Below are positions 34,020 to 37,969 of a DNA stretch of 64,000 nt, piece by piece (positions within the stretch are counted from its first letter, which is position 1; the number at the start of each line of letters is the position of its first letter). Where the stretch lies: contig NZ_JAYMYY010000008.1 of assembly GCF_039889165.1 (NCBI RefSeq), forward strand, positions 82,200 to 146,199, in the 5' to 3' direction. The notes under the pieces are model-generated. The model was not told the DNA's origin. It saw only the letters and a list, made by a program, of their open reading frames with translations, and did not search any database. Origin of the DNA: Pseudocitrobacter cyperus. Its GTDB lineage: Bacteria > Pseudomonadota > Gammaproteobacteria > Enterobacterales > Enterobacteriaceae. A program made the translations under genes and the position numbers.

Positions 34020-34805
34020 TCACACCATCACCGTTTGATAAAGCAGTTTATCAAGCGCGCTGACATTTCCCGTTCGGGCATCTGGCAACGTAGGTGTCAC
34101 TTCGCCTCTCGCCAGTTCCGAGTGGATGAATGCATGCAACAACGGACGCCGCATGCCATATTCCGCTTCACCTGCGCGCATTTTACGCACCAACAATTCG
34201 TCTATCTCCCGACGCAATGCGGTCTCCAGATCGCTACCTGCCAATAGCTCGGCAAAACGCATCGGTGGAGCGCCTTTTCCTGCCTCAATCCAGCGAACTG
34301 CCAGCAGCGGACGCAGTACGTAGAAGTATTTTTTCAATCTGACTTCATCCCCCTGCAGATAACCACGAAAGTTTTTCCGCGCCATTGAGAGGTAGTGCCA
34401 GCGTGCGCGAAGCGGTGAGAACCAATGAGGGATCTGCTCTTTCAGCGCCGAAAATGTCACATCGTCCTGCCGATAAACGATTGGCGAATCCAGCCATTCG
34501 ATAAGCGTCGGGTTTGCCCCTTTTAGTAGACCAAGAGCCTTACGCCACTCCCAACCACAAACATCCAGCTCATCATCTATCGGCAGTTCGATCACATCTC
34601 GCTGGGGCTCAACCCGCAAATACCATTCCGGCGGGTGAACATATAAAAAGCGCACGTCGTAATCACTATCAGGCGAGGCGAATCCCCAGCCCCGGCTACC
34701 GAATTCACAGGCAAAAAGCACCCTTACATCATAACGGCGCTCCACCTCTTCGAGCTGTCGTAACACCCGCTCGCGCATCGCGCCGTTAACGCCGTTATTC
34801 ATCAT
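34020..34805 (-). CDS. Pol-beta-superfamily nucleotidyltransferase, RlaP-like (RNA-repair-associated NTase family; COG3541-like), 261 aa
   Basis: NTase signature FGSRGWGFASPDSDYDV (G[SG]...D.D) near the N-terminus; about 260 aa with no HEPN partner. Family assignment is from motif and size only. Confidence 0.5.
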   Translation of the reverse strand: MMNNGVNGAMRERVLRQLEEVERRYDVRVLFACEFGSRGWGFASPDSDYDVRFLYVHPPEWYLRVEPQRDVIELPIDDELDVCGWEWRKALGLLKGANPTLIEWLDSPIVYRQDDVTFSALKEQIPHWFSPLRARWHYLSMARKNFRGYLQGDEVRLKKYFYVLRPLLAVRWIEAGKGAPPMRFAELLAGSDLETALRREIDELLVRKMRAGEAEYGMRRPLLHAFIHSELARGEVTPTLPDARTGNVSALDKLLYQTVMV

Positions 34806-34810
34806 TTACT

Positions 34811-35938
34811 CTACCCTTTTATATTCACTAAACCGTGTAGCAGCTGGTCAAGACCGCCAAAGACCGAGATTTTATCGATACGCTCAGCCACCTTTTCTAA
34901 GGTCTCCATTTCCTTGAGCCGCAGCGCAACCGGGTTGTTTTCCATGACTTTGGCTGTGTTTAAAAGCGAACGCGTTGCAGCCGTCTCTTCACGTCGACGG
35001 ATAACGTTCGCCTGCGCCGATTTCTCCGCTTCAACGACCTTCGCCAGGATGGTTTTCATTTCGCCCGGCAGCACAATGTCCTTCACACCTAAAGACGCGA
35101 TTTCAATACCCAATGGCGCCATACGGGCTTTCACCTGTGCGCTCACCACCTGATCGATAACCTGCTTATCTTCCAGCAATTCATCGAGCGTGCGTGTTCC
35201 CACGGCTTCACGTAGCGCGAATTGCAGCTCGCGGTACAAGTGATCTATCGGTTTCGCCAGTTGTCCAAAAGCCTGTAAAACATCCTGATAACGCCAGTTA
35301 GCCGCCAGATTCAAACGAAGATTCACTTTGTCTTTGGTCAGAATCTCCTGCCCGCCCACTTCCAGAACCTGAAGTCGGGTATCGACCGCCTCGGCCTCCA
35401 CAAGGTGATTCACCTTCCACCAGGCACTCAATCCGGGTGACAGCAATGCCTGTGTTTCACCATCAACTTTTAAAACCCCCACATGCCATGCAGCGATAGA
35501 TACCGTGAGAATAATATCGCGCCCTTTTACCGCACCACTGCGTCGTGGCTGTAACACCGCGTTCATAACCTCCGCAGGGACCTGAACCTGCCGCGTATCC
35601 ATACGCATCACGTGCATCTCCTCAATAGGCTTCCAGTACAAACGACGAGTGGAAGGCGCGAGAATCTCTTGCAACACGCCATTGATATACAAGGCGCCTG
35701 CTTCAGAATCGGTTAAATCCGCGATCACGCAGTAACGTTCAACCCATTCTGGCTGATAGCGACGCAGCCAGTTCGCCAGTACTTCAGGCACTTCGCCACC
35801 GTCCAGGTTTACCACCAACACATCCGGCGTGGTGAACCAGGATAAACGATGTTCGCCTGCTTCCAGGACACTGTAGTAATCGCCATTTTTTGCCAGTAAT
35901 CCCAACTGACCTTTTCGTATTGTGATTTTCTTCGACAT
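34811..35938 (-). CDS. SPFH/band-7 (slipin-like) domain protein with an about 170-aa N-terminal domain of unknown function, 375 aa
   Basis: C-terminal 200 aa matches SPFH-domain hallmarks (...IEIASLGVKDIVLPGEMKTILAKVVEAEKSAQANVIRRREETAA...NPVALRLKEMETLEKVAE). No obvious TM segment. Separated by 5 nt from the NTase gene, so a likely operon. Confidence 0.65.
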   Translation of the reverse strand: MSKKITIRKGQLGLLAKNGDYYSVLEAGEHRLSWFTTPDVLVVNLDGGEVPEVLANWLRRYQPEWVERYCVIADLTDSEAGALYINGVLQEILAPSTRRLYWKPIEEMHVMRMDTRQVQVPAEVMNAVLQPRRSGAVKGRDIILTVSIAAWHVGVLKVDGETQALLSPGLSAWWKVNHLVEAEAVDTRLQVLEVGGQEILTKDKVNLRLNLAANWRYQDVLQAFGQLAKPIDHLYRELQFALREAVGTRTLDELLEDKQVIDQVVSAQVKARMAPLGIEIASLGVKDIVLPGEMKTILAKVVEAEKSAQANVIRRREETAATRSLLNTAKVMENNPVALRLKEMETLEKVAERIDKISVFGGLDQLLHGLVNIKG

Positions 35939-36230
35939 TTTCTGTTCCTTTTAAAAATCAGGTGCGAGTGCAGAGGCGAAGCGACAGGGGAACTCCCTTT
36001 TGCCTGCCGCACGGCATCATTACCGGCAGCCTGTTTTGCGAATTGCCACCTGCACAATCCACGGTTTTGTTCGGTGAATAACAACCAGTGTTCATTGAGT
36101 AAATGAATCGGGAATCGAACCCTTGCGTGTCATCGACTGAGACGGAACGCTCTCGGGAAAACAGCCTCAACTGCTCCTGGGGCGCCGGCGGGGTTTTAAT
36201 CCCCTGCATTTTCAGCATGTTGACCGATGA
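35939..36230 (-). other. about 290-nt structured 5' leader or candidate ncRNA transcribed from the sigma54 promoter
   Basis: Includes a GGGGATTAAAACCCC hairpin (about 36190-36204), a tRNA T-arm-like GGGTTCGATTCCC (about 36110-36122), TTCATT/AATGAA and CTGCCG/CGGCAG stems. The only ORF (86 aa, 35958-36218) lacks an SD and has odd composition. Confidence 0.3.
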
Positions 36231-36235
36231 AGTTA

Positions 36236-36253
36236 TTGCCAGAAGCGTGCCAG
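36236..36253 (-). promoter_or_regulatory. sigma54 (-24/-12) promoter directed toward the SPFH-NTase operon: cTGGCACGcttcTgGCAa
   Basis: GG and GC are spaced exactly as in the mrNrYTGGCACG-N4-TTGCW consensus, with one mismatch in the -12 element. Lies divergent from the RtcR-like activator gene. Confidence 0.6.
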
Positions 36254-36317
36254 AAGAAGAAAATCACGATAAATATTTATAATCATATGATTAATAATGG
36301 TTTTATTTTTTCAGTCC

Positions 36318-36344
36318 GTAACAGGCATTGCCTGCCTGTCAGGA
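36318..36344. promoter_or_regulatory. candidate activator-binding site (UAS): inverted repeat ACAGGCATTGCCTG-CCTGTCAGG about 85 bp upstream of the sigma54 promoter, with an AT-rich (IHF-like) tract in between
   Basis: Palindrome CAGGC-att-GCCTG seen in sequence; its position fits bEBP promoter architecture; assignment is inference. Confidence 0.3.
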
Positions 36345-36388
36345 AAAATTTATCTTTTGATATCAATACTTATTTTTATGGATAAACC

Positions 36389-37969
36389 ATGAAAAAACGG
36401 CGGGTGGTGATTGGCGTCCTGGGTACAGTCCTGGATAAACGCGGCAAGCGAGCAAACCGATTTAAGAAATGGCGGCCCACTGTAGGATTATGCCAGCAGG
36501 CTGATTTCCCCATAGACCGCCTGGAATTACTCCACCAGCCACGTGATGAAAACATGGCGCAACGGCTGGCAGAAGACGTTGCCCTGCTCTCGCCTCGCAC
36601 CGATGTACGTCCACATACCGTGACGATTAATGACCCGTGGGATTTTGAAGAGGTTTACGCCGCCTTTCTCGACTTTGCGACACATTACCCTTTTGATACC
36701 GAGAATGAAGAGTATCTGGTGCATATCACCACCGGTACGCATGTGGCGCAGATTTGCTGGTTCCTGCTCACGGAGGCTCGCTATCTTCCCGCCAGCCTGC
36801 TGCAAACCAGCCCGGCGCCGAAAGATTCGTCTGATGAAGCCATCGCAGCAGGCAAGTACTCGGTTATCGACCTTGATTTAAGTCGTTACTCCACCCTGAC
36901 TAGTCGTTTTCAGCACGAACAGCAGCAATCGGTCTCTTTTCTGAAAGCCGGTATCGAGACGCGGAACGTCACATTTAACAAACTGATTGACCAGATTGAG
37001 CGCGTGGCCCTGCGTTCCTGTGCACCCATCTTGCTTACCGGGCCGACCGGTGCCGGGAAATCATTTCTGGCAAAACGGATATTTCAGCTTCGTCAGTCGC
37101 GTCATCGGGTCGACGGAAAATTCGTGGCCATCAACTGCGCCACATTGCGCGGCGATAACGCCATGTCCACGCTGTTTGGGCATGTCAAAGGCGCATTTAC
37201 CGGTGCATTAACGCCACGCGCCGGTTTGCTCCGGGAAGCCAATGGTGGCGTGCTGTTTCTTGATGAGATCGCCGAACTGGGGCTGGACGAACAGGCGATG
37301 CTGTTAAAAGCCATTGAGGAAAAAACCTTCTTCCCATTTGGCTCTGATAAAGAGGTGCATAGCGATTTTCAACTGATTGCCGGCACCCATCGCGATATGC
37401 GCCAATGGATCGCCGAGGGGCGTTTTCGCGAAGACCTTTACGCCCGTATTAATATGTGGAGTTTCGCACTGCCAGGACTGATACAGCGGCGGGAAGATAT
37501 CGCCCCCAACGTTGAGTATGAGCTGGGGCGATTTACGCGTGAACAACAATCACAGGTGCGTTTCGATAAAGAGGCGCGTGAGCGTTATCTCTCCTTTGCC
37601 TGCTCGCAACAAGCAGTATGGCGTGGAAACTTCAGGGAATTAAGCGCATCGATCACGCGTACGGCAACACTTGCAGAGAAGGGGCGCATAACGCTCGCTG
37701 TCGTCGATGAAGAAATTGCTCGCTTAAAGGCAGAGTGGCAAACCACAGGTGAAGCGACGATCATTAATCAGGAAATTGATCTCTTTGATCAGCGCCAACT
37801 GGAGACCGTTCTGGACGTATGCCGTACCAGCGCATCGCTTTCAGAAGCAGGAAGAATGCTGTTTGCTGTCTCCCGGCAGAAAAAGGCCAACCCTAACGAC
37901 GCCGATCGATTACGTAAATATCTGGCACGTTTTGGATTGAGCTGGGAGAGTATTCACAGGGGAACATGA
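36389..37969 (+). CDS. RtcR-like sigma54-dependent transcriptional activator (N-terminal CARF domain, AAA+ sigma54-interaction domain with GAFTGA, C-terminal HTH), 526 aa; paralogue-level similarity to E. coli RtcR
   Basis: Collinear with E. coli RtcR along its whole length (KWRPT..LCQQ...IDRLELLH...NPWDFEEVYA...YLVHITTGTHVAQICWFLL...GPTGAGKSF...HVKGAFTGA...FRELSASITR...DADRLRKYLARFGL), roughly 55-60% identity by eye. Confidence 0.85.
   Translation: MKKRRVVIGVLGTVLDKRGKRANRFKKWRPTVGLCQQADFPIDRLELLHQPRDENMAQRLAEDVALLSPRTDVRPHTVTINDPWDFEEVYAAFLDFATHYPFDTENEEYLVHITTGTHVAQICWFLLTEARYLPASLLQTSPAPKDSSDEAIAAGKYSVIDLDLSRYSTLTSRFQHEQQQSVSFLKAGIETRNVTFNKLIDQIERVALRSCAPILLTGPTGAGKSFLAKRIFQLRQSRHRVDGKFVAINCATLRGDNAMSTLFGHVKGAFTGALTPRAGLLREANGGVLFLDEIAELGLDEQAMLLKAIEEKTFFPFGSDKEVHSDFQLIAGTHRDMRQWIAEGRFREDLYARINMWSFALPGLIQRREDIAPNVEYELGRFTREQQSQVRFDKEARERYLSFACSQQAVWRGNFRELSASITRTATLAEKGRITLAVVDEEIARLKAEWQTTGEATIINQEIDLFDQRQLETVLDVCRTSASLSEAGRMLFAVSRQKKANPNDADRLRKYLARFGLSWESIHRGT

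Follow-up and report, generated by a model that had tools for sequence, protein, structure and literature searches.

What does an RtcR-type regulator control when its divergent partners are an SPFH/Band-7 protein and a nucleotidyltransferase? The question is raised by a locus in the window, a 64-kb stretch of Pseudocitrobacter cyperus DNA. A first-pass annotation had noted that rtcBA is missing at the locus, and tblastn indeed found neither rtcB nor rtcA in the 64 kb. The three ORFs lie where that annotation had placed them, its three domain calls (RtcR, SPFH, nucleotidyltransferase) agree with Pfam profiles, and the block is, as it had claimed, an insertion relative to K-12, because yjbD and lysC are directly adjacent there. 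In our view the locus is probably an enterobacterial variant, lacking the ligase, of the RtcR-controlled 'Band-7 / b7a-tRNA / RlaP' branch of Rtc RNA repair. The features are as follows.

34020 to 34805, minus strand: rlaP, RlaP (PF10127), Pol-beta-type nucleotidyltransferase of 261 aa, full-length Pfam match
34811 to 35938, minus strand: SPFH/Band-7 protein ('slipin family'), 375 aa
35939 to 36226, minus strand: structured leader RNA, a reduced band-7-associated tRNA-like RNA
36237 to 36252, minus strand: sigma54-type promoter, TGGCACG-N4-TGGCA, position conserved in relatives
36347 to 36386, minus strand: TTATC/GATAA repeats, candidate RtcR binding region
36389 to 37969, plus strand: rtcR, 526 aa, with CARF sensor, sigma54-activating AAA+ (GAFTGA) and HTH

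The regulator and its control region

Pfam finds the RtcR CARF domain (PF06956, E=2e-82) and Sigma54_activat in the 526-aa ORF, the NCBIfam RtcR equivalog scores it at 828 bits (cut-off 650), and the proposed full-length collinearity with E. coli RtcR holds, at 62% identity end to end. The genes of the locus are under purifying selection, with dN/dS of 0.06 for rtcR against Citrobacter and 0.04-0.08 for rlaP. The promoter TGGCACGCTTCTGGCA at 36237-36252 on the minus strand is the only place in the window that fits the sigma54 consensus when up to one mismatch is allowed, although one match against 3.5 expected is a count not above chance. The assignment is supported instead by conservation at the same place: seven related loci and E. 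coli keep the position, with Citrobacter, Klebsiella, Superficieibacter, Lonsdalea and Mangrovibacter represented. The divergent sigma54 wiring proposed earlier stands. The palindromic UAS, CAGGCAATGCCTG (36334-36322), was not confirmed: it is not conserved, and neither the Citrobacter nor the E. coli version contains it. A candidate RtcR binding region is offered by the TTATC/GATAA repeats at 36347-36386, which adjoin the rtcR start codon, are kept in 7/7 enterobacterial loci and persist also at the E. coli locus, where rtcR is absent; a comparable repeat arrangement lies upstream of E. coli rtcBA.

The canonical E. coli rtcR-rtcBA pair shares the RtcR architecture, a sigma54-type promoter and upstream TATC/GATA repeats with this locus, but has a leader of only ~40 nt with no RNA module, and its effectors are the ligase and the cyclase. 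The RtcR ligand has been the subject of published experimental work (PMC7790460), and activation of E. coli RtcR requires the RtcA and RtcB proteins (PMC9650030). If the Pseudocitrobacter genome lacks both, the sensing step would not be transferable as it stands.

Operon context of the SPFH and RlaP genes

We surveyed the neighbourhoods of 80 species-level loci of the SPFH family. The SPFH gene is followed by rtcB in 35 of the 80, a divergent rtcR is present in 29, rlaP in 20 and rtcA in 12. The commonest full operon, rtcR divergent from RNA-SPFH-rtcB-rlaP-rtcA, occurs in Pseudomonas, Burkholderia, Delftia and Dechloromonas. Within this survey the form with rtcR, RNA, SPFH and rlaP and no rtcB or rtcA was confined to Enterobacterales (Klebsiella, Superficieibacter, Lonsdalea, Mangrovibacter, Citrobacter and the Pseudocitrobacter window). 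The first-pass annotation had read the two proteins as an effector pair swapped in for rtcBA; they are rather accessory parts of the same RtcR operon across proteobacteria, and in gene content the enterobacterial locus is that operon minus ligase and cyclase.

Burroughs and Aravind (NAR, 2016) reportedly predicted Band-7/b7a-tRNA/RlaP modules of RtcB RNA-repair operons, as a prediction only. A system of this kind was already known, where an "uncharacterised" response had been supposed: the association of Band-7, b7a-tRNA, RlaP and RtcB is credited to their 2016 prediction where it is quoted in bioRxiv 10.1101/312249, the b7a-tRNA being still unvalidated when last discussed there, and RlaP activity was reported in 2025 (bioRxiv 10.64898/2025.12.29.696909). 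In that work Pseudomonas RlaP orthologues added 1-2 nt to RNA 3'-OH ends in vitro. The proposed link to RNA damage holds in our assessment. The RlaP of the window matches PF10127 over its full length (E=6.8e-94), carries the GS...DSDYD motif, starts 5 nt past the SPFH stop codon and is 57-67% identical to the rtcB-rtcA-flanked RlaP of Pseudomonas, Burkholderia and Chitiniphilus.

An example of such a module is the P. aeruginosa rtc locus, with PaFlo8 (PA14_60630), RtcB, RlaP, RtcA and RtcR. The presence of the SPFH gene within the Pseudomonas rtc locus was noted in 2026, and deletion of PaFlo8, the SPFH orthologue, gave no phenotype in standard assays. The window resembles these modules in its proteins (SPFH 54-60%, RlaP as above, RtcR 57-65% identity), in its divergent sigma54 wiring and in a homologous RNA 5' domain and T-arm upstream of SPFH; it differs in having no rtcB or rtcA and in an RNA that has lost the unit resembling an authentic tRNA and keeps a single T-arm followed by a hairpin.

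The leader RNA and the SPFH protein

Between promoter and SPFH ORF lies a leader of ~288 nt. The first-pass annotation had its length about right (~290 nt) and missed that it is a conserved structured RNA with a T-arm. Its elements, all on the minus strand, are listed below.

36216-36136 (P1), 36204-36190 (P2) and 36187-36143 (P3/P4): 5' domain
36123-36109: T-arm
36107-36091: P5 hairpin
36061-36038: P6
36031-35960: 3' domain, P7-P9

RNAalifold and pair counts on eight enterobacterial sequences gave a consensus of 58 pairs, with 92% of cells paired. Both partners had changed in 29 of the pairs; shuffles gave 12.7 (0/500 reached 29) and the slid control 4-9. Leader identity to E. coli, Citrobacter and Klebsiella is 65-76%, whereas four-fold sites show 34-45%. 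Covariation strongly supports a conserved RNA structure in the leader.

A covariance model of the 5' domain and unit 1, built from non-enterobacterial loci only, matched the same strand upstream of SPFH with E<0.01 at 76 of the 79 loci, 67 of which scored at least 30 bits. Every enterobacterial leader was recovered by this model built without any of them: orthologous leaders at E=5e-9 to 6e-4, and the window at 36096-36214 on the minus strand, its sole match and a weak one (16.1 bits, E=0.087). Loci of the SPFH family mostly carry two tandem tRNA-like units upstream (ARAGORN; T-loop motif; Rfam: tRNA), and the leader region of relatives comprises one or two full units in which acceptor stems and an encoded CCA are present. 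ARAGORN and Rfam reported nothing in the window RNA, which has no tRNA-resembling unit and retains one T-arm followed by a hairpin. By these matches, the leader is a homologue of the 5' portion of the predicted "band 7-associated tRNA" region.

Could the leader instead be purely cis-regulatory, an attenuator, riboswitch or T-box-like sensor for SPFH and RlaP with no role as an RNA partner? It sits between promoter and first ORF with no conserved terminator in that interval, is long and structured as many leaders are, and in several species the strand 3' of the T-arm has alternative pairing partners, one upstream and one downstream. Against this, the complete tRNA-like units of relatives have the anatomy of a processed-out RNA, and the Shine-Dalgarno sequence is free in the consensus structure. 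The RNA also lies between rtcB and SPFH in Methylomicrobium and 1.5-3 kb upstream of SPFH in cyanobacteria, and is therefore in those cases a gene-linked RNA not acting as the SPFH 5' UTR. We regard a purely cis-regulatory role as improbable.

In the 375-aa protein Band_7 (PF01145, E=4e-25) covers residues 148-318, so the extra N-terminal part is ~145 aa rather than the 170 aa first given, while the SPFH assignment itself is upheld. The N-terminal part consists of two five-stranded beta repeats (about residues 1-140); the SPFH core (143-290) comes next and is followed by long C-terminal helices (292-353). Database names ('slipin family protein' at NCBI, 'regulator of protease activity HflC' at JGI) and the nearest solved folds, stomatin and HflK, would suit a chance neighbour of rtcR, either an ordinary membrane slipin or a protease modulator of the HflK/C kind. 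However, the protein has no hydrophobic or membrane segment and is probably soluble, it scores far below the cut-offs of the HflK and HflC models, its gene has no NfeD or FtsH partner, and different phyla preserve its linkage to rtcR, rtcB, rlaP and the RNA; this reading, already disfavoured, is barely credible.

Only the major vault protein aligns with the SPFH protein over its whole length, and the eukaryotic vault (major vault protein plus vault RNA) ranks among the closest systems. The Anabaena TrcR translational-stress regulon (tRNA L-array, HNH all8564, rtcB and alr0739-alr0740) is another: in a trcR mutant the orthologous slipin gene alr0740 is de-repressed 42-fold together with rtcB, the tRNA array operon and the HNH gene (PMC10272220). 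The alr0740 product, assigned by position and 82% identity, belongs to the same SPFH family, and its gene is co-induced with rtcB and has a tRNA-like element upstream, but at 508 aa the protein is longer, with one more repeat at its N-terminus, and the gene is governed by the repressor TrcR with no sigma54 or RtcR and has no RlaP alongside.

Proposed mechanism and the E. coli module

In the repair branch that we favour, RtcR would oligomerise and open the sigma54 promoter at 36237-36252. As read from the sequence, the transcript would begin with the ~288-nt highly structured RNA and continue into the tightly coupled SPFH and RlaP genes. Conservation and structure suggest that the RNA is a functional partner of SPFH and not a spacer, probably released, or active within the transcript, as a tRNA-mimicking module that may act in trans. 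Judging by fold and family behaviour, the soluble SPFH protein probably forms a ring- or cage-like homo-oligomer that would scaffold this RNA and damaged-RNA substrates. Such a scaffold would parallel the Salmonella rsr-yrlBA-rtcBA operon (Ro60 plus Y RNAs with a tRNA-like domain), likewise an RtcR/sigma54 operon combining a ring- or cage-forming protein, a tRNA-mimicking ncRNA and RNA-repair enzymes; the fold there is TROVE/Ro60 instead of SPFH and the RNA is different, Rfam Y-RNA giving no match to the window RNA. RlaP, by analogy with its Pseudomonas orthologues, would add 1-2 nt to damaged RNAs at 3'-OH ends from which nucleotides are missing, and sealing would need an RtcB encoded elsewhere, for which E. 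coli co-occurrence gives indirect support.

A possible though doubtful alternative, in line with the first-pass reading, is that RtcR drives a response in which two proteins suffice and no RNA ligase is required. RlaP would then re-extend trimmed tRNA 3' ends or tag RNAs, or the tRNA-like RNA and an SPFH cage would trap anticodon nucleases or phage factors as a decoy or sponge. The absence of rtcB and rtcA from the 64 kb fits this, as does a ligase-less layout stable under purifying selection in at least six enterobacterial genera; the RNA also occurs without nearby rtcB at some SPFH loci of other phyla, and for tRNA arrays it has been suggested that the additional tRNAs act as a sponge (PMC8421152). 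Yet in most proteobacteria the module lies physically within the rtcB operon, and the reported RlaP activity makes sense only as healing before ligation. PADLOC defence-system models gave no significant match to SPFH and only a weak partial one to RlaP (E=0.003, not significant), and the SPFH family is rare in viral contigs.

E. coli argues in the same direction, its module being essentially never found without rtcB. New here is that in 1632 of 5426 complete E. coli genomes (~30%) the same lysC-yjbD site is occupied by the promoter, the leader and the SPFH and RlaP genes, with no adjacent rtcR. As rtcB is present in 4858 genomes and its union with the module-positive set is 4859, only about one module-positive genome lacks rtcB (odds ratio 287, p=2e-92, statistics that ignore phylogeny; the co-occurrence may be partly phylogenetic). 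Because all but about one of the module-positive E. coli carry rtcB, the module probably cooperates in trans with RtcR and RtcBA.

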